Made by a program: the position numbers and the translations under genes
Source of the DNA: a virus
Taxonomy: Duplodnaviria; Heunggongvirae; Uroviricota; Caudoviricetes
Strand: one strand, 5' to 3'
Virus record (IMG/VR): IMGVR_UViG_2671180360_000002
Length of the DNA: 23,431 nt
Part shown: one piece after another, positions 14,761 through 23,431 of the stretch
Position numbering within the stretch: the stretch's first letter is position 1
Layout: every line of letters starts with the position of its first letter
Notes under the pieces: generated by a model
The model's database searches: none
Told to the model about the DNA's origin: nothing
The model's input: the letters and a program-made list of their open reading frames with translations, nothing else

Positions 14761-16740
14761 TCAGGCCACCGACGAACGCACCAGCCCGCGCCAGTCAAGT
14801 GGTGCCACTCCGGCATCAATACGGATTTTTGTGGCAATGCCGTCAGTGGTGAAACCTTCCTGCTGATCAATGTATGGCGTGTCCACACCATCCAGCCAGG
14901 CCACTTCAATGGTGTCAGTGCCCTGTGCCGCCGCCAGATACCAGGTTTTCGGATCTGCCGCATCAAGACGCGCTTCTGCAATCACCTCAGCAAAGTTCTG
15001 GATGGGGTTAATGACACCGGCGTTTGCATCCGCCCCTTTCACACTGGCCGATTTGATGGTCTGGTTCGCCACCGTCTCCAGTGCCACCGGTACCAGCATA
15101 AAGGCCGGACGGATATTCAGGGCGCGATCGCCTTCTTTCTGCAGGCGCATCATCTGACGGGCCGCATCCAGTCCGGAAACGGAAATCCCACCGGTGGCAA
15201 TATTTTTGTGATCGGCATGGAACAGCGCCTTACCGTCTGACAGTTTCGGGTTATCCGTCAGCACCTTGTAAACCAGGTCACCAATCGTTGCCTTCGCCGC
15301 ACGCCCCATCTTCATCGGCACGTCCACCAGCATATTCAGATCATCATTGATAATGGCCTGGCGGGTGATGGAGAAAATCTCCCCGTAAGTGGCCAGTGCA
15401 ATGGTCTCCTTGCGATCTGAGGTGGTGATGTATTTATACTCCGCCCCCTCACGAACCTGGCGCAGAGAACCAAAACCGCCCATCCCCACGCGATACGCTG
15501 TTTTGAAGTCTGACAGGCGTCCCTTACGGGTCCACTTCTGGAAGGTTTCTTCTGATTCCTCCCAGCCCTGGATCAGCCCCTTGTTCGACACATCCAGCAG
15601 AATATTGCCAAAATCAGAGGTGCTGTGCGTCAGCGCCAGCCCGACCATCTGCATGGGGTTATAACTGGCCACCCCAATACCGCGCTCCGTCAGTGACATG
15701 CGAGCCCATTCACGCAGGGTCATCCCGTTATAGGCGTTATCCTTCTCGACATTTTCAAATCCGGCACGGGCCAGCATCGCCTGGCGGATCCCGTCCCCCA
15801 CAAAATTGCCGTTTCCGGCATAAATATGAGCCGGTGTATTTTTGTTGGTCGGCGAGGACTCCTTGCCCATTTCATTCAGCAGACGTTCACGGGCCATTTC
15901 CAGCGAACAGTCAGGATCAGCCACGCACTGTGCCTGAAGCGTCTGATAGCGACCGCCGAACATGGCAAACAGATCGTTAATGCCTGACATGCGGGCTTTC
16001 TGTTCTGCCATAACGCGGGCGCGAATGGTCGCCTCATCAGACACTGCCGGTACCGGTGATGGTTCTGTTACCGCCGGTGCAGGGATTGTCACTGTGGTAT
16101 CACGCGGGGCACTGTTGTATGGCTGCGTGATCATATTTCGGATGGATTCCGGCATCTTTTTAAATTCCTCTGTACGTTTTGACTGAATACATGCCATTGC
16201 CTTAACGGCTGGCGTCACCTGGTCTGCAAATCCGTGTGCCAGACACTCGGCACCGGACATCCAGGTCTCATCCGCCAGCATGGCGGCAATTTCATCGGTA
16301 GTTTTTCCGGTTTTCTGCGCATATACCGGCACCATAACCGACTCAAGTTTGTCCAGACGTTCGGCATAAGTGCGCATTTTCTCCGCATCACCACCGCTGA
16401 TCCCCCAGGGTTTATGGATCATCATGAAGGCATTTTCCGGCATAATGACCGTGTCACCGGCCATCGCAATCAGGGATGCCATCGAGGCGGCAACGCCATC
16501 CACATACACGGTAATGGCCGCACCGTGATTTTTCAGGGCATTAAAAATGGCGATGCCTTCAAAGACATCGCCACCCGGTGAGTTGATGTGGAGATTAATG
16601 TGGGTGATATCACCCAGGGCATTCATATCGCTGACAAACTGCTTCGCGGTAACTCCCCAGAAACCAATCTCGTCATAAATATAAATATCCGCCTCACCCT
16701 GACCACCCGCCTGCATCCTGAACCAGGATTTATTCTTCAT
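14761..16740 (-). CDS. Prohead protease (ClpP-like) / scaffold / major capsid protein fusion
   Basis: ATG at 16740-16738 gives MKNKSWFRMQAGGQGEADIYIYDEIGFWGV... The N-terminal domain carries a ClpP-type serine motif (GVAASMASLIAMAG). A central Pro/Ala/Glu-rich linker precedes a C-terminal domain of about 300 aa with capsid-like character, all in one 659-aa frame. The track ORF (to 16932) extends upstream into the portal gene, so the internal ATG is preferred. Confidence 0.85.
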   Translation of the reverse strand: MKNKSWFRMQAGGQGEADIYIYDEIGFWGVTAKQFVSDMNALGDITHINLHINSPGGDVFEGIAIFNALKNHGAAITVYVDGVAASMASLIAMAGDTVIMPENAFMMIHKPWGISGGDAEKMRTYAERLDKLESVMVPVYAQKTGKTTDEIAAMLADETWMSGAECLAHGFADQVTPAVKAMACIQSKRTEEFKKMPESIRNMITQPYNSAPRDTTVTIPAPAVTEPSPVPAVSDEATIRARVMAEQKARMSGINDLFAMFGGRYQTLQAQCVADPDCSLEMARERLLNEMGKESSPTNKNTPAHIYAGNGNFVGDGIRQAMLARAGFENVEKDNAYNGMTLREWARMSLTERGIGVASYNPMQMVGLALTHSTSDFGNILLDVSNKGLIQGWEESEETFQKWTRKGRLSDFKTAYRVGMGGFGSLRQVREGAEYKYITTSDRKETIALATYGEIFSITRQAIINDDLNMLVDVPMKMGRAAKATIGDLVYKVLTDNPKLSDGKALFHADHKNIATGGISVSGLDAARQMMRLQKEGDRALNIRPAFMLVPVALETVANQTIKSASVKGADANAGVINPIQNFAEVIAEARLDAADPKTWYLAAAQGTDTIEVAWLDGVDTPYIDQQEGFTTDGIATKIRIDAGVAPLDWRGLVRSSVA

Positions 16741-18232
16741 GCTGGCTGTCGGTGGCCTGCTGACGCTGTTGTTCAGTTCCGGCACTGTTGCCTCCTTTGT
16801 CGTTGACGGGGTCAGTATCAAAGACCAGCCCCAGTCTGCTGTTTTCATCAATTTCAGCCTTGCGGCGACGTTTGACCTCATCCGGATTGCGCCCGCCGGC
16901 ACGCACCCAGTCAGATTCTGTCGCTGCACCACCCCGGATCTGAATTCTCCAGGCTTCAGCTTCCTTAACCGGGTCGATCCACGGCATCACCGGACCGGAA
17001 TACGTCGCGTTATATAGCGTTTTCATCTCCACATCCGCCGGAATTTTCAGCAGACCTGCCGCAACCACCATATTCAGCCATGTCCGGTACACCGGACGGG
17101 TTACCGCGCCAATAAAACAGTCCTGCAGGATCAGGTAACCATCCGTGGACTCGACCAGCTCCTGCCGCTGGGCACTGTAGGTGCCGTTATAGTTACGCGC
17201 CGCACTGGAAAAACTCAGACGACTGCCCGCTGCCACTGCACGCAACTGGCCGTTGCGGAAAGTTTCAAGGTTGGGATTGGGACGGTCTGATTTGACCATG
17301 CCGATATCCTCGCCCTTGCGCAAATCGTCATAAATAATACCCGGGGTGATATGGACTTCCCGGTCGGTTTCTTTGATCCCCGGCTCTTCATAGTCCTGCC
17401 CGTCACCTTTACGGATATACAGTCCCAGCGCCGCGGCAATACGCGCCGCAGTGAGTTCCGCATCCTCATACTCCTTAAGGGCACTGATCCGCATCAGCAC
17501 CCCCGATAACATGGATGAGCCTCGCGTCTGATGCAGACGACGAGTGAACTTCAGGTGGATCATTTTTCCGGCAGCGATTTCTTTCGTATCACTCTGCCGG
17601 CCGCTGACCGGATAATTTTTATAAACCAGATATTTTTTCGGTCTTCCCCACTCATCAAGAAAAACCCCCTGATTCAGTCCGGCGGATTCATCAGTGCGCA
17701 TGGGAACAAAATCCGGCTCCATCGCCTCAAGCCAGAATGGCACTCCCGCCGTCCGTTCCAGACCGTTTCCCGCACCACTGACCATCTGCGCAAACACTTC
17801 ACCATCCCGCAGCCAGGTCCGCAGCAGTAAACGTTCAAGCACGGGACGGGTATACTGCCCTGTCACATCCGGACTCACGGACCACTCAGCCCACAACCGG
17901 CGGATATCCGCAGCCAGCTCTGCCGCCATTTCCCCGTTTTTTCGTAATGGCTGAGGCTCCACAATAATTCCCCTGGCACCAATCACCCGCTCTTCCAGCT
18001 TGTCAAACACACCAATCACCAGGTCATGATTGATATCCAGAAAACGGGCCTGCTCCCGCAGGGAAACCGCACCGTATTTACTGAGCTGATCAGCAGAGCG
18101 ATTTTCCCGCCGGGCTTTATGTGTCCGGGTCGGTTTCACCGCCTCATAGGCCATGATTAACGCCCTTGAACGCAGTCTGGCTGCTTTCCAGCCGGGGGAA
18201 AACACGCCTATCACATCATCAATAATTGCCAT
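16730..18232 (-). CDS. Portal protein
   Basis: A 500-aa ORF between W and the protease gene. Its ATG (18232-18230) overlaps the W stop (TAATG). Size and position fit a lambda-family portal; the C-terminus is acidic and Gln-rich. Confidence 0.88.
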   Translation of the reverse strand: MAIIDDVIGVFSPGWKAARLRSRALIMAYEAVKPTRTHKARRENRSADQLSKYGAVSLREQARFLDINHDLVIGVFDKLEERVIGARGIIVEPQPLRKNGEMAAELAADIRRLWAEWSVSPDVTGQYTRPVLERLLLRTWLRDGEVFAQMVSGAGNGLERTAGVPFWLEAMEPDFVPMRTDESAGLNQGVFLDEWGRPKKYLVYKNYPVSGRQSDTKEIAAGKMIHLKFTRRLHQTRGSSMLSGVLMRISALKEYEDAELTAARIAAALGLYIRKGDGQDYEEPGIKETDREVHITPGIIYDDLRKGEDIGMVKSDRPNPNLETFRNGQLRAVAAGSRLSFSSAARNYNGTYSAQRQELVESTDGYLILQDCFIGAVTRPVYRTWLNMVVAAGLLKIPADVEMKTLYNATYSGPVMPWIDPVKEAEAWRIQIRGGAATESDWVRAGGRNPDEVKRRRKAEIDENSRLGLVFDTDPVNDKGGNSAGTEQQRQQATDSQHEE

Positions 18233-18468
18233 TAAAACCTCGCCAGTTTAAATCCTGGTTTTCCCCGCCTGCGGCTCACCATCGCGGCAAGCCTGCGTTC
18301 CCACTCCTGACGTCCGGCGCGGATCTGAGAAAGGCTTTCCAGCGTCAGTTGCTGTCCGTTGAAGGTGACAGACTTCCCCTCCAGTACGGCCATTTCCGCT
18401 TCACGGTACCGCTGTATCATTTCTCTGGCTTCTTCTGTGCTCACAACCAGCCTCCTGATGTTATCCAT
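18232..18468 (-). CDS. W: Head-tail joining protein W-like
   Basis: A 78-aa ORF, MDNIRRLVVSTEEAREMIQRYREAEMAVLEGKSVTFNGQQLTLESL...RRRGKPGFKLARF, resembling lambda gpW in pattern and C-terminus as recalled. It sits between the large terminase and portal genes as in lambda. Confidence 0.8.
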   Translation of the reverse strand: MDNIRRLVVSTEEAREMIQRYREAEMAVLEGKSVTFNGQQLTLESLSQIRAGRQEWERRLAAMVSRRRGKPGFKLARF

Positions 18469-20564
18469 GGATTATCTTCCGCACGCTCCGTCCGCAGTTT
18501 TTTCTTCCGGCGACGGCGTTTTTCTGCCCCGGCCGTCAGTTCCGGGGATACCGTTTCACCAGAACGCTCCTGCGGGAAGACGAGCCACGTTTCCCGCTGT
18601 GCCCAGTCCGGTGCGGAGGGCCAGCGGATCTTTTCGTAACCATGCAGAACGGCAAGCGCATCCGCATAAACCAGCAGGTCAAACGCCTCGTTAGCTCCCC
18701 TGCCCGGTTTTCGCCATTTTCCGTCACTGCCGCGCTCTTCATAGGTCAGCTCATCGTAAAACCATCGCCCCAGCCAGTCGGGAAAGTGGATATAGTTCGG
18801 CCCTGGTGTGTCACGCCACAGGGCATTATTTACACGGTCCTTAAACGCATCCGTCTGAACCAGCCACAGCGCGACATCGCCACTGGCTCTGGCACGGCGG
18901 GCACTTCTGCCGGTATTATCCGGGAAGGTACGGTTAATCAGCCTGTCACGGCGAAGTCCATCCCCCTTGAACAGAAACACCCTGTTGCCCAGTCCGTCAC
19001 TCCGGCAACGACGCCAGAAACGATAGGCGTTATCTGTCACCCCGGCTTCCCCTCCCGTATCCACCGCCATGGCCATCAGACGCATGCGCACATCCGGATC
19101 AGAAGCCAGCGGCCATGTTTTATGGAACACATCCGTCAGCAACAAATCCCAGTCCTCCGGATATGCCGCCGGATCAACCGGCAGACTTTCACCGTTGGGA
19201 CTGCAGCGCAGTGAATGCCGGATGTTATAGCGATCAACAATCCAGCGTTCCCCCTGCTCTCCGTATCCGGTGATCTGCACAACAAAACGGCGATTTTTAC
19301 CGCCCTGTACGTCAACCGTTGCCTCAATAAAACGCACACCATCCGGCACAGATCGCCGGGGAAACGGCTCGGCACGCTGTTCAAGCAGTTCACTTTTACG
19401 CTGTTCCGTGGCTGAACGGGGCAGATAGGGGCGTCCGATATCGGTGTTCACCACCGCTTTCAGGGTCTCTTCACTGCCGGTTCGCTCATACTCTTCTTCT
19501 GCCGCCAGCAGTTTAAAAATCAGTTGTTCCCAGGTCTGAAACGCCGCAGCCGGCCCCTCCATCCAGAATGACGCAATCCGGGAATTTCGTGGCGTTCCGG
19601 TGATACTGCCGTCCGCCACCGCCCGTTCACCTTCACGAAGCCAGATCCCTTTGTTATTCAGTTCGCGTTTCTGCTCAGGGGCAATCAGCCCGCGACAATG
19701 CGGACACATCAGACGGGCAGCCTGACCGGCAGCCACAAAATCCGGGTTATTCCGGTATCCGGTCATGTTATCCATCACCGGCTGAAAATATTCCCCGCAG
19801 TGCGGACACGGCCAGTACCACCGGCGGCGGTCTCCCCGGTTATACAGTGACAGGATCCCCGTTGTTGGCGGTGCCTCATGTGCGCCGCCACAGCGCCATT
19901 TGGTGTCAGTGATATCCCGCCCCGGCGAACTCTCGACCAGGGTCATCCCCGAGGACATAAAGGTGGTGGTACGCTTTGATGCCAGGGTGAAGGCATCCCC
20001 TTCCCCGTCCACGTTTTCAGGGAAACGGTCATAATCCGTCAGCGCCACACGACGGTAATCCGAAGAAGAAAATACAGTGATCGACGGCCAGCCAATCTTC
20101 AGGAAGGAGCCGTCAAGAAACATTTTATCGTGGACGTTGTTGTCATTACGGGAAGGACTGAGGCGCTTGCTGACCTCCGGACTGTGGCGAAACGTTCTGG
20201 AAAGACGCGTTCTGGAATGCTCACGCGCCTTCGTCTCAGTCATCTGCACCACCAGCATATCCGCCGGATCACAGATGATGCCGTACACAATCCAGCCATC
20301 AATCAGCCCTTCGGTTTTCCCGGTTCGCGCAGGTCCCACAAACACCACCGCGTCATATTCACGGGCTGATAATGTATTAATGGGGTCAATCATATAGGGC
20401 GTCAACGATGACTCCCACGGACCGGAAGTATTGGCTCCCCGTGGTACCCGCATATAACGCCTGATGGCTTCCGCTACTGGTAACCGGCTGGGTGGGCGAA
20501 ACAGCGAGGCCACTTCGCGCCAGATATCGGATGCGCGGCTATGGCTCTCGTTCACCTGATTCAC
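18441..20564 (-). CDS. Terminase large subunit (GpA family)
   Basis: A 707-aa ORF. It starts at GTG 20564-20562, the first start codon after in-frame stops, overlapping the small-subunit stop (ATGTGA). A Walker-A-like motif VFVGPARTGKTE is present. Position after the small terminase gene fits. Confidence 0.9.
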   Translation of the reverse strand: MNQVNESHSRASDIWREVASLFRPPSRLPVAEAIRRYMRVPRGANTSGPWESSLTPYMIDPINTLSAREYDAVVFVGPARTGKTEGLIDGWIVYGIICDPADMLVVQMTETKAREHSRTRLSRTFRHSPEVSKRLSPSRNDNNVHDKMFLDGSFLKIGWPSITVFSSSDYRRVALTDYDRFPENVDGEGDAFTLASKRTTTFMSSGMTLVESSPGRDITDTKWRCGGAHEAPPTTGILSLYNRGDRRRWYWPCPHCGEYFQPVMDNMTGYRNNPDFVAAGQAARLMCPHCRGLIAPEQKRELNNKGIWLREGERAVADGSITGTPRNSRIASFWMEGPAAAFQTWEQLIFKLLAAEEEYERTGSEETLKAVVNTDIGRPYLPRSATEQRKSELLEQRAEPFPRRSVPDGVRFIEATVDVQGGKNRRFVVQITGYGEQGERWIVDRYNIRHSLRCSPNGESLPVDPAAYPEDWDLLLTDVFHKTWPLASDPDVRMRLMAMAVDTGGEAGVTDNAYRFWRRCRSDGLGNRVFLFKGDGLRRDRLINRTFPDNTGRSARRARASGDVALWLVQTDAFKDRVNNALWRDTPGPNYIHFPDWLGRWFYDELTYEERGSDGKWRKPGRGANEAFDLLVYADALAVLHGYEKIRWPSAPDWAQRETWLVFPQERSGETVSPELTAGAEKRRRRKKKLRTERAEDNPWITSGGWL

Positions 20565-21037
20565 ATATCGGCCTCATCACAACAGTCAATGACTGCCTTT
20601 TCCAGTGTATCGCGGATCTCATCAACCACAATCTGTACTTCATTCAGTTGTGATGCGGTCCACCCCCTGTCCCTCTCCAGCCGGTCAGGCCAGGTTTCCA
20701 GTACCTGAACTATCGCTTTCACCACGACAGAAAAGGACCGCCTGACATCACTGACTGGCACAAGCTGAACAGTTTCATGCTGAAATTTAAGACGCTCGCG
20801 CTCGGACTGATACCATGCCTTCCGATCATGTGGGTTCATCTCTTCATCTTCGGAAGCCGGTGGTTTTTCCAGCAACGAAATAATCAAATCCGTCAGGAGA
20901 TACATTTTTTTCTTTTCATTACTGCCTGGTGCAAGAGGAACATCCGCCATTCTGGCGGCAACAGTCTGCCGGTGCAGACCTGAAAGGGCTGCCAGTTGAT
21001 TAATATTTAACTTCATATTTTTCAGCTCGCCGTCCAT
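20561..21037 (-). CDS. Terminase small subunit (Nu1-like, HTH DNA-binding)
   Basis: A 158-aa ORF with ATG at 21037 preceded by GGAGGG and a 6-nt spacer. The N-terminal segment NINQLAALSGLHRQTVAARMA looks like a helix-turn-helix. It lies immediately upstream of the large terminase gene and about 200 bp downstream of the putative cosN. Confidence 0.8.
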   Translation of the reverse strand: MDGELKNMKLNINQLAALSGLHRQTVAARMADVPLAPGSNEKKKMYLLTDLIISLLEKPPASEDEEMNPHDRKAWYQSERERLKFQHETVQLVPVSDVRRSFSVVVKAIVQVLETWPDRLERDRGWTASQLNEVQIVVDEIRDTLEKAVIDCCDEADM

Positions 21038-21039
21038 TC

Positions 21040-21300
21040 ACATCCCTCCACATAAACCGCTGAACAAAAGTGGCTCTTTTTTTGTAAAGAAATGCCGCCA
21101 TATAAAGATGTCGAACAAAAATCAACCACAATCATCATCTTTTTAATGTTAAACACATTAAAAACAACAAGTTATGCTAATGATGATGATGACGATAAAA
21201 TCACAAAAATGCGCCTTTTTCCGCGCCGTCCGCCCCGTGTTCAGGCCCACCCCACCAGGAGGACCCGCAAAAATGATAATGGTTATCATTTTCAATGTAG
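21040..21300 (-). other. Putative cos region (cosN-like G-rich motif, candidate terminase-binding repeats, AT-rich segment)
   Basis: A non-coding region between Rz and the small terminase gene. The minus strand reads ACGGGGCGGACGGCGCGG (plus 21221-21238), whose first nine bases match the lambda cos junction ACGGGGCGG..., about 190-200 bp upstream of the small terminase start, as in lambda. Inverted ATCATCATC / GATGATGAT copies lie at 21131-21139 and 21182-21190. Confidence 0.45.
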
Positions 21301-21489
21301 TCCGGTTTCTTCCACCATCGCACCGGACAGGCGACTATGAGGGGACAACGCCGCGCTCCGTTAACGCGGTAAACCCCGGTGTGTATCGTTTTTGATTATC
21401 CCCGCACACTCGCGCAGAGGAGTCTCCCTGTCGGGCTGCGGTCTCTGTTAATGAGGGAATACAGCGACGATACGGCGCATCAACAAAAC

Positions 21490-21957
21490 TTATTTCAGGC
21501 ACTGAGTACGGATATATTCCTGCGCCCCTTCCAGTTGCTTGTGCATCGTCATCAGCCGCTCTCTGAGGGTGAAATAATCCCGTTCAGCGGTGTCTGCCAG
21601 TCGGGGGCCGGTTGCATTATCCACGCGGGCGGTGCCGGTGGCTTCACGCACGGGACCTGGACAGGTGGCGTTGATACGCAGGCGCTTACGACCAGCGGCA
21701 ACGTCAGCGCGAAGAGTTTCATTTTCAGCTCTCGCATCGGCTAATTCCCTCGAGTATTTTGCATCGAGCGCAGCAACATCACGCTGACGCATCTGCATGT
21801 CAGTAATTGCCGCGTTCGCCAGCTTCAGTTCTCTGACATTTTTGTCGCGCTGGGCTTTGTAGGTAATGGCGTTATCACGGTAATGATTCAGCCCCAGACT
21901 AAGCGCACCACAGGCCACCAGCATGACAATAATCACCACACACAGAACACGGTTCAT
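21490..21957 (-). CDS. Rz: Rz i-spanin
   Basis: From ATG 21957-21955: [68 protein letters not shown]..., a strong match to lambda Rz as recalled. The track ORF extends upstream from a GTG; the ATG is preferred. Confidence 0.93.
21552..21737 (-). CDS. Rz1: Rz1 o-spanin (lipoprotein, embedded in Rz in the +1 frame)
   Basis: The 61-aa translation [61 protein letters not shown] has a lipobox VSAC and a Pro-rich body, matching lambda Rz1 as recalled. It is fully embedded within Rz. Confidence 0.9.
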
Positions 21958-22056
21958 ATCACCACCAACGGATTGCCCAGACCAGAACAGCAATGGCCAC
22001 AATACGAATGGCAAATGCCATTGCCCGAATAAGTTCAGCACTCATCTTTTTAAAGT

Positions 22057-22328
22057 TCACGATTTCAGCGCAATGACCAGTTTTGCCAGCCCATATAGCA
22101 TCGGAGACACAGCAATACCAACAGCCACCCACTTAATAGCAAAAGCCACCCACTTAATAGCAAAAGCCAGCGCTCTGCTGATGTCATCAGTCACTGTCAC
22201 CCCAGCAGCCCCGACGAAGACAACATCACCCAGGCGAGGGACAGAAAAAGAGCAACCAGCATTAGTGAAAATGAAATACCGACAATCACACACAGGACCT
22301 TTGCCGGCGTTATGAGTTTGTCTGACAT
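22057..22328 (-). pseudogene. Small two-TMD membrane protein gene with an apparent frameshift (43-aa N-terminal ORF plus an out-of-frame C-terminal extension)
   Basis: ATG at 22328-22326, preceded by AAGGGG, encodes MSDKLITPAKVLCVIVGISFSLMLVALFLSLAWVMLSSSGLLG, stopping at TGA 22199-22197 inside a G-run. The overlapping +1 frame continues ...VTVTDDISRALAFAIKWVAFAIKWVAVGIAVSPMLYGLAKLVIALKS to TGA 22059-22057. One extra G in the run would join them into an approximately 90-aa protein. Confidence 0.35.
22124..22170. repeat. 21-bp perfect tandem duplication (about 2.2 copies) inside the small membrane ORF
   Basis: GCCACCCACTTAATAGCAAAA occurs at 22124-22144 and again at 22145-22165, followed by a partial GCCAG. 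In the minus-strand reading frame this duplicates the heptapeptide AFAIKWV. Confidence 0.9.
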
Positions 22329-22330
22329 AG

Positions 22331-22426
22331 CTACCCCTTAATTGCCACAATTAACTGGGATACTACCCATAAAAAAGGGATGCTCCAGACCAGCAAAAAT
22401 TTCCAGTTTGGTAATTGACTAATCAT
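22331..22426 (-). CDS. Possible 31-aa hydrophobic peptide ORF
   Basis: ATG at 22426-22424, preceded by GGGAG with a 9-nt spacer, encodes MISQLPNWKFLLVWSIPFLWVVSQLIVAIKG and stops at TAG 2 nt before the next ATG. It is very short and unverified. Confidence 0.2.
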   Translation of the reverse strand: MISQLPNWKFLLVWSIPFLWVVSQLIVAIKG

Positions 22427-22493
22427 GAGTCGCAACTCCCTAATCAGTTTGCTAAAATCAATCAAGGCAGCCTCCCATAGCTTACTGCCATAA

Positions 22494-22534
22494 AAACAAA
22501 ACCCCGCTTGCTGCCAACAAACGGGGTTTTTACT
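22494..22534. terminator. Bidirectional rho-independent terminator-like hairpin downstream of the endolysin gene
   Basis: AAAACCCCG...CGGGGTTTT stem (22498-22506 pairing with 22522-22530) with T-rich tracts on both strands (plus TTTTTACTTTTATT; minus TTTTGTTTTTATGG). It lies about 90 nt after the endolysin stop. Confidence 0.5.
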
Positions 22535-22620
22535 TTTATTCACTTACGTTTCGCCAGTTCGCAGGATTTCGTGTTATCCGCCCGCGTGGCCATGCCTTAT
22601 TTTTCAGCAAAATATTCTGC

Positions 22621-23154
22621 TTATCTGTCGATACCCCAGCACGCCAGCGCGCTCTCCTGGTCACGACGGGATACCTGACCGTAGCAGTTGTTTGAACGAA
22701 TACGGCAGTCTCTGCCACCGTCCTTAATCCACCAGCGAATCGCCTCACACGCTCCCCTGCGATCACCTGCATTAATTCGTTTATAAAACGTCGACGGGAA
22801 ACACTTACCGGGACCAATGTTGTACGGACAGAATGACGCGATCCCCGCTTTCTGGGGTTCGCTCAATGGCACTTTGATGTTTTTCTCCACCCATGCCAGC
22901 GCCTTATCACGCTCAATGGCGTTGACCTGGTCGCATTTTTCCTTCGACAGTTTCATACCGGGAAAAACGGGTTTTCCATCCACCATCGTGGCCCCCCGAC
23001 AGATGGTCCAGATGCCGGAACCATCGCGGTATGCCGTAGTGTGGTTACCCTCTTTTTCATCCAGAAACTGGTCGAGAATATCAGGCGCGGGCGCACCGAC
23101 GGCAATCAGTGCCAGAACGGCAGCCGACAGGCCGTATCTGATTTTTGCGTTCAT
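22621..23154 (-). CDS. R: Endolysin, T4-lysozyme-like with N-terminal signal-anchor-release (SAR) segment
   Basis: The 177-aa translation MNAKIRYGLSAAVLALIAVGAPAPDILDQFLDEKEGNHTTAYRDGSGIWTICRGATMVDG... has a weakly hydrophobic Gly/Ala-rich N-terminus (SAR-like) followed by a lysozyme-type catalytic region (E...D...T spacing). It lies upstream of Rz/Rz1. Confidence 0.88.
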   Translation of the reverse strand: MNAKIRYGLSAAVLALIAVGAPAPDILDQFLDEKEGNHTTAYRDGSGIWTICRGATMVDGKPVFPGMKLSKEKCDQVNAIERDKALAWVEKNIKVPLSEPQKAGIASFCPYNIGPGKCFPSTFYKRINAGDRRGACEAIRWWIKDGGRDCRIRSNNCYGQVSRRDQESALACWGIDR

Positions 23155-23217
23155 GGATATTTATCAGGATTTATCGGTTTCTGCCCACGGACAGGTTTAT
23201 CTGTTCTGGTCAGTGAC

Positions 23218-23431
23218 TTAAGGTTGTGATTCCGGAGGAGTCTTCAGAGAACCAGTAATTCTTCCTGGTAGCTTTCCTTTGTAGGTTATCCACACATTCT
23301 GCGCCTCTAAAATTACGGGGCACTTTTCCGGCGACTGCTCATCCCCTTCACATAACCCGGCAGCAACATCCAGGAAGACCTGTCTGATGCTCCTTCTGGC
23401 TGCTGCCTCATAAAACTCCAGCGCGGCACCT
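23218..23431 (-). CDS. Partial ORF (3' end only; start beyond the window), soluble hypothetical protein upstream of the endolysin
   Basis: An open frame runs in from the window edge and ends at TAA 23220-23218: ...GAALEFYEAAARRSIRQVFLDVAAGLCEGDEQSPEKCPVILEAQNVWITYKGKLPGRITGSLKTPPESQP. It has no transmembrane character, so it is not a holin. Confidence 0.4.
   Translation of the reverse strand, partial: GAALEFYEAAARRSIRQVFLDVAAGLCEGDEQSPEKCPVILEAQNVWITYKGKLPGRITGSLKTPPESQP

Follow-up and report, generated by a model that had tools for sequence, protein, structure and literature searches.

The general mechanism of lysis by a pinholin and a SAR endolysin has been described (PMC9636201): the S21 68 pinholin makes small heptameric channels that depolarise the membrane, not large holes. 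A cassette with one gene more, essQ-ydfR-rrrQ-rzpQ/rzoQ, is annotated in the cryptic Qin prophage of E. coli K-12, where a class II holin gene is followed by ydfR (DUF1327) and then by the gene for a 177-aa lysozyme. In phage 21, whose lysis proteins are S21 68/71, R21 and Rz/Rz1, S is presumably followed directly by R, with no ydfR between them. The holin-ydfR-endolysin layout is already known and is a very common variant of the pinholin/SAR-endolysin cassette.

We analysed a stretch of 23,431 nt (hereafter the window), the last segment of which, positions 23155-23431, lies upstream of a SAR-type endolysin gene on the minus strand. This segment had been put forward as a place where the expected holin gene is missing. 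It is literally true that no holin lies immediately upstream of the endolysin, for the neighbouring gene is ydfR; the further reading, that the cassette has no holin, is best accounted for by the edge of the contig. The segment very probably joins ydfR to the endolysin gene in a lambdoid lysis cassette that is common in E. coli, and the holin goes unseen because the contig ends inside ydfR. The complete cassette would consist of a class II (phage-21/S21-type) holin, ydfR (DUF1327), a SAR-type lysozyme, small membrane ORFs and Rz/Rz1.

The partial gene upstream of the endolysin is ydfR

An ORF on the minus strand can be read from 23430, runs off the end of the window and closes with a stop codon at 23220-23218. 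A profile search supplied the identification of this ORF that the original prediction had called for. Its 70-aa fragment matched the Pfam family PF07041 (DUF1327) with an E-value of 9.3e-15 and 55.1 bits against a cutoff of 25, covering profile positions 47-92 of 93, and the full-length YdfR of a relative scored 143.3 bits against the same profile. We therefore annotated 23218-23431 (minus strand) as the 3' part of ydfR, comprising codons 47-116 and the stop codon of a gene for a 116-aa YdfR/DUF1327 protein that is cut by the contig end. The visible 70 residues represent the C-terminal 60% of a YdfR-family protein. The fragment also matched PHROGs 2091 and 406, both of unknown function. A Megablast search of complete E. 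coli genomes located the 2-kb lysis region in thousands of them, and in these matches the gene under the last 214 nt of the window was annotated as "YdfR family protein". The family is narrow, with 318 clusters at E<=0.001 and source names that are almost all Escherichia or Shigella.

The ORF had been described as soluble and as ending 63 nt before the endolysin start. The distance is exact, with the endolysin ATG at 23154. Moreover, no hydrophobic stretch was found in the 70 visible YdfR residues, in which the highest Kyte-Doolittle mean over 19 residues was 0.69, compared with 1.70 for the holin of the relatives and 2.2-2.9 for small membrane ORFs located downstream of the endolysin gene.

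A class II holin gene precedes ydfR in the related prophages

The closest relative was a prophage of E. coli FDAARGOS_1059, which matched window positions 20052-23431 (~3.4 kb) with 1 mismatch and one 21-nt indel. In this prophage, a class II holin gene (216 bp, 71 aa) is followed by 4 nt, ydfR (351 bp, 116 aa), 63 nt and the lysozyme gene, and the layout in E2348/69 is the same. The holin matched PF04971, the Pfam family built on the P21 holin S, with an E-value of 9e-33 over 63 of 64 profile positions. A PF04971 holin followed by DUF1327 and the lysozyme was also present in all eight of the contigs shown for the identical 177-aa endolysin. Every examined relative that carries ydfR has it between a phage-21-type holin and the endolysin. 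The ydfR-lysozyme half of the cassette is thus visible in the window, and the holin-ydfR half in the relatives (FDAARGOS_1059, E2348/69, the eight contigs and K-12 Qin).

In the close relatives, 418 nt separate the end of the holin gene from the endolysin start, and ydfR is the only gene in between. No class II holin ORF was found within 23155-23431, and the window ends ~142 nt short of the expected holin stop. By projection from the relatives, the holin stop would lie ~142 nt and the holin start ~357 nt past the window end, and the strain from which the window derives probably carries the gene as well. The original prediction had proposed that the holin might be located further upstream, be replaced by the small membrane ORFs or be lost, and only the first of these three alternatives fits the evidence, namely the co-oriented PF04971 holin in every close relative. 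Each of them carries, within a few hundred bp upstream of the endolysin, the canonical co-oriented holin or pinholin gene that had been named beforehand as evidence against a holin-less cassette.

The layout is frequent. At least 80% of a 687-nt query composed of the holin gene, ydfR and the endolysin start was covered in 2,541 of the 5,426 complete E. coli genomes, as well as in 76 phage records that include Stx1a-, Stx2a- and Stx2c-converting phages and PhiR5_1 (listed host, E. coli C). In a sample of 30 rows taken across the full ranking, the annotation under the match was a class II holin or EssD in each row covering the holin part. The premise that a pinholin gene lies directly upstream of a SAR endolysin gene describes one common layout, but it leaves out a second common layout, holin-ydfR-endolysin, which occurs in K-12 Qin and has matching DNA in about half of the complete E. 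coli genomes.

The contig ends inside a repeated block of ydfR

An exact protein match of a small ORF with a 7-aa duplication specific to the window led to contig CYDK01000052.1 (GCA_001285005.1), which has the same length as the window (23,431 nt) and agreed with it at every position of the 5,375 nt compared. The window therefore corresponds to one whole contig of a short-read draft assembly, which broke off within ydfR at this end. The codons at the break specify GAALEFYEA; no other block of the YdfR family is as conserved, and ydfR alleles with differing N-terminal halves have it in common. E. coli genomes bearing the module have it at a median of 2 and up to 17 places each; a conserved ydfR block present in multiple copies is the kind of repeat at which short-read assemblies break.

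At the other end of the contig, positions 1-1716 hold tail-fibre genes, with two ORFs carrying the prophage tail-fibre C-terminus domain PF06820. These genes are another class typically repeated among lambdoid prophages, which fits with repeats bounding the contig at both ends.

A deletion, an inversion or an IS insertion within ydfR might instead have removed the holin gene together with its linkage to the late promoter, broken the contig and left an endolysin without a holin. The contig does terminate inside a gene, and IS insertions are known in this prophage family, as the large terminase gene of the closest relative is interrupted by ISEc22. However, the last 277 nt of the contig matched the intact ydfR of FDAARGOS_1059 with zero mismatches, and no IS terminal sequence, other foreign bases or non-ydfR bases were present at the contig end. 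An IS insertion was rejected on this basis as the reason for the contig end. In addition, the position of the break in the most conserved, multi-copy block of ydfR alone explains the interruption of the assembly, the other late genes (those for endolysin, Rz/Rz1, terminase, portal and tail) are intact, and the holin was kept in 8/8 of the contigs shown with the identical endolysin. The contig ends before the holin site, so that the loss suggested as one alternative is conceivable in this strain, but nothing points to it, and we regard true loss or separation of the holin as highly unlikely. Some assemblers trim contig ends, and this strain might carry a rearrangement or insertion of its own at just that point. 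An apparent absence at the edge of a window, here the end of a short-read contig, should not be counted as gene loss.

The cassette Shine-Dalgarno sequence serves the gene that follows the holin

The 63-nt spacer between ydfR and the endolysin gene (23155-23217, minus strand) was characterised by anti-SD pairing, folding and alignment as an SD-less, AU-rich initiation region that contains two copies of GATAAAT. The ATG at 23154 is the sole possible start of the endolysin, with an in-frame TAA 9-7 nt upstream. As had been noted, this start is not preceded by an obvious Shine-Dalgarno (SD) sequence: the best anti-SD duplex in the region from -22 to -3 had a free energy of +0.3 kcal/mol, the second weakest among 23 minus-strand ATG ORFs of at least 100 aa, where the weakest value (+0.6) belonged to an ORF of uncertain start and most others ranged from -3 to -14. 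The endolysin leader also had the highest mean unpaired probability (0.73) and was the least structured of the 12 start regions tested. No stable fold was detected at 23240-23125 on the minus strand (-15.4 kcal/mol versus -17.0 +/- 3.0 kcal/mol in shuffled sequences; z=+0.52), and no Rfam match was obtained at E<=1 over 21400-23431; a structured RNA in the spacer was rejected on these two results. A consensus scan of the minus strand of the spacer found no sigma-70-like promoter site.

The SD sequence of the cassette, GGGGAGAG, sits inside the 3' end of the holin gene. In phage phiSTEC1589-Stx1c, the holin gene is followed after 4 nt by an endolysin gene of the same family, with the junction GGGGAGAGTAAGCTGATG and the SD sequence in the holin 3' end. 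This junction recurs as GGGGAGAGTAATTCAATG or GAGGAGAGTAATCCAATG in the window-type cassette and in Qin, but there the next gene is ydfR, indicating that ydfR occupies the SD-equipped slot. The endolysin gene lacks an SD sequence because that of the cassette serves whichever gene follows the holin, which is ydfR here and the endolysin where ydfR is absent. The ydfR stop and the endolysin start overlap as ATGA in Qin, where CATAAATATCTATGA encodes the C-terminus of YdfR. In the lineage of the window, the YdfR C-terminus is different and longer, and the same ATAAATATCCATG is a non-coding leader at the end of the 63-nt spacer. The motif ATAAATATC(C/T)ATG was invariant in 6/6 cassettes, K-12 Qin included. 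Initiation of the endolysin is presumably SD-independent, from an AU-rich and unstructured leader.

Three relatives carry an extra ORF of 86-90 aa on the opposite strand between ydfR and the endolysin gene (L006, 3623-3895; L014, 2031-2303; L015, 2947-3207). This ORF, annotated as DUF1823 in phage PhiR5_1, is absent in the window. Its presence in some cassettes suggests that the ydfR-endolysin junction is a recurrent point of insertion and recombination.

ydfR is very common, is wedged between the pinholin and SAR endolysin genes and takes the SD-equipped slot that the endolysin otherwise uses. YdfR might act as a lysis-cassette factor, for example, by binding RNase E or RNA and so tuning how stable the late lysis transcript is or how well it is translated, in which case the endolysin start of this lineage, SD-less and uncoupled, would contribute to setting the endolysin-to-pinholin ratio and the timing of lysis. 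We consider such a role rather unlikely. In the literature, one paper mentioning DUF1327 was found, and none addressing a role of ydfR in lysis.

The two GATAAAT copies are indeed present at 23159-23165 and 23169-23175 (as ATTTATC in the reverse complement). Together with the SD-less leader, they could form a regulatory element for endolysin expression, such as a protein-binding site or a translational operator. Four lineages that diverge further upstream have kept the ~35 nt that precede the endolysin ATG, and the proximal copy is invariant in 6/6 cassettes. However, this copy simply encodes the end of YdfR in Qin, where there is no distal copy, and the distal copy reads GATAAAC in one lineage. 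Furthermore, exact 7-mer repeats at offsets of 7-20 nt numbered 25 in the window versus 18.2 +/- 4.7 in shuffled sequences, so they are not significantly enriched; the chance expectation of such a repeat is ~0.07 in any given 63-nt stretch, but 23 kb had been scanned when the repeat was picked out. Given also that the spacer matches no Rfam family and shows neither a stable RNA fold nor a promoter-like site on its strand, the probability of a regulatory element appears very small. The repeat was rejected as a significant element, being not clearly above chance, missing its distal copy in Qin and altered in one lineage.

The endolysin and the genes downstream

The gene at 22621-23154 (minus strand) encodes a 177-aa lysozyme-type endolysin (PF00959, E=2.1e-24) with a probable N-terminal SAR domain. 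The protein is homologous to the SAR endolysin R21 of phage 21 (3HDE, E=3.4e-16) and to RrrD of DLP12 (4ZPU), and it has the E35/D44/T50 triad (Glu-8aa-Asp-5aa-Thr). Its N-terminus reads MNAKIRY-GLSAAVLALIAVGAPA, where residues 8-23 (GLSAAVLALIAVGAPA), located after Lys4 and Arg6, are Gly, Ala or Ser at 9/16 positions; the Kyte-Doolittle mean over 19 residues peaks at 1.87 for residues 9-27. The mature part holds eight Cys. These features fit a protein that is a SAR endolysin or is at least exported, and a cleavable signal peptide would also be possible. SAR behaviour, with Sec-dependent tethering to the membrane by an uncleaved signal and release on depolarisation, is predicted by analogy with the homologs.

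An intrinsic-terminator-like hairpin directly follows the endolysin gene at 22498-22530 (minus strand), with a 15-pair stem including 6 G-C pairs, a 3-nt loop and then GTTTTTATGG as the T run, and it is conserved in the relatives. This strong hairpin is located inside the lysis cassette, ahead of the small ORFs and Rz, and late transcription presumably passes it only when antiterminated.

Four tandem ORFs with a single transmembrane domain (TMD) each lie between the endolysin gene and Rz (21959-22465, minus strand; boundaries read from the sequence). ORF A (22465-22331) encodes 44 aa with a TTG start, ORF B (22328-22197) encodes 43 aa, ORF C (22200-22057) encodes 47 aa with a GTG start overlapping the stop of B (GTGA), and ORF D (22045-21959) encodes 28 aa and ends 2 nt before the Rz ATG. 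Their hydropathy peaks range from 1.9 to 2.9. They matched PHROGs 6632, 4906 and 1115/3246/4493, all of unknown function, and ORFs B and D, the only two scanned against Pfam, had no match. It is extremely improbable that these ORFs are the functional holin or holins of the cassette, as had been suggested in the form of a replacement: they form a tandem of four with one strongly hydrophobic segment apiece, two of them have good ribosome-binding sites or a start-stop overlap, and they sit inside the lysis cassette with the endolysin on one side and Rz on the other, but wherever relatives carry them a bona fide class II holin is present as well, and they belong to no PHROGs holin family, are absent from the working cassettes of K-12 Qin and phiSTEC1589-Stx1c and, with only 28-47 aa and a single TMD, fall far short of the size of characterised holins. 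They were rejected as replacement holins.

ORFs C and D look like paralogues by eye (ISRALAFAIKWVAVGIAV in the comparison), and the small-ORF module is nearly identical in E2348/69 and phage PhiR5_1. In ORF C, positions 22114-22169 comprise 2.7 tandem copies of a 21-bp unit, one copy more in the window than in any of the aligned relatives. The additional copy keeps the frame and lengthens the hydrophobic segment by FAIKWVA, giving an ORF C of 47 aa versus 40; the exact 47-aa variant was found in only 3 contigs of the protein index.

The cassette closes with Rz, an i-spanin of 155 aa (21490-21957, minus strand; PF03245, E=2.1e-51), and Rz1, an o-spanin of 61 aa embedded out of frame in Rz (21552-21737; PF06085, E=4.3e-21). 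Both genes are intact.

Beyond the lysis genes, the contig holds a lambda-like set of packaging, head and tail genes that is complete. A DUF1441 protein of 158 aa (20561-21037, minus strand) forms the small terminase subunit, and the large subunit is of the gpA type (707 aa; 18441-20564, minus strand). In several prophages that share this lysis cassette, the small subunit is instead of the Nu1 or Terminase_2 type, suggesting a mosaic junction just downstream of Rz. Additionally, a single 706-aa ORF at 14761-16881 (minus strand) joins a ClpP-type protease domain and a major-capsid domain (PF00574 and PF25209).

Comparison with known lysis cassettes

If the cassette works like the studied phage 21 system, the late transcript would give a pinholin and a membrane-tethered SAR endolysin, triggering of the pinholin would collapse the proton motive force, and the endolysin would then be released and activated, after which Rz/Rz1 would disrupt the outer membrane. 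The holin of the relatives falls into the S family of phage 21 (PF04971), and pinhole behaviour of this allele is predicted from that likeness. Likewise, the endolysin is a distant relative of R21 (3HDE/3HDF), with which it shares the catalytic triad and the Gly/Ala-rich N-terminal hydrophobic segment; it has eight Cys.

The holin of the relatives starts with MYQMEK, a Met1/Met4 dual start, and its strongest hydrophobic segment covers residues 36-54; a weaker first segment was judged by eye only. In the closest relative, this allele lies outside the stretch corresponding to the window (L001, 3644-3859), and it differs from K-12 EssQ, which starts with MKSMDK: the Lys in the EssQ extension (MKSM) has no counterpart in MYQM. 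With no extra Lys in the extension, the charge-based antiholin mechanism of S21 71 may not apply, and dual-start antiholin regulation may differ in the MYQM allele.

The 71-aa holin of phiSTEC1589-Stx1c is 100% identical to that of the relatives, and its endolysin belongs to the same family. The SD-bearing junction is also the same (GGGGAGAGTAA, 4 nt and ATG), but it leads into the endolysin, which holds the SD-equipped slot right after the holin in this phage without ydfR. ydfR is thus an optional insert between S and R.

The cassette of K-12 Qin has the same gene order as the window type and the same 4-nt holin-ydfR junction, where its SD sequence is GGAGAGTAA. The holin of the relatives is 79% identical to EssQ, the YdfR proteins are 64% identical, and ATAAATATC(C/T)ATG before the endolysin start is conserved between Qin and the window. 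Unlike the 116-aa YdfR of the window type, which has another C-terminus and is followed by the 63-nt spacer, YdfR of Qin has 103 aa and its stop overlaps the rrrQ start. Finally, a DUF2514-type RzpQ directly follows rrrQ in Qin, without the terminator hairpin and the small membrane ORFs that separate the endolysin from Rz in the window.
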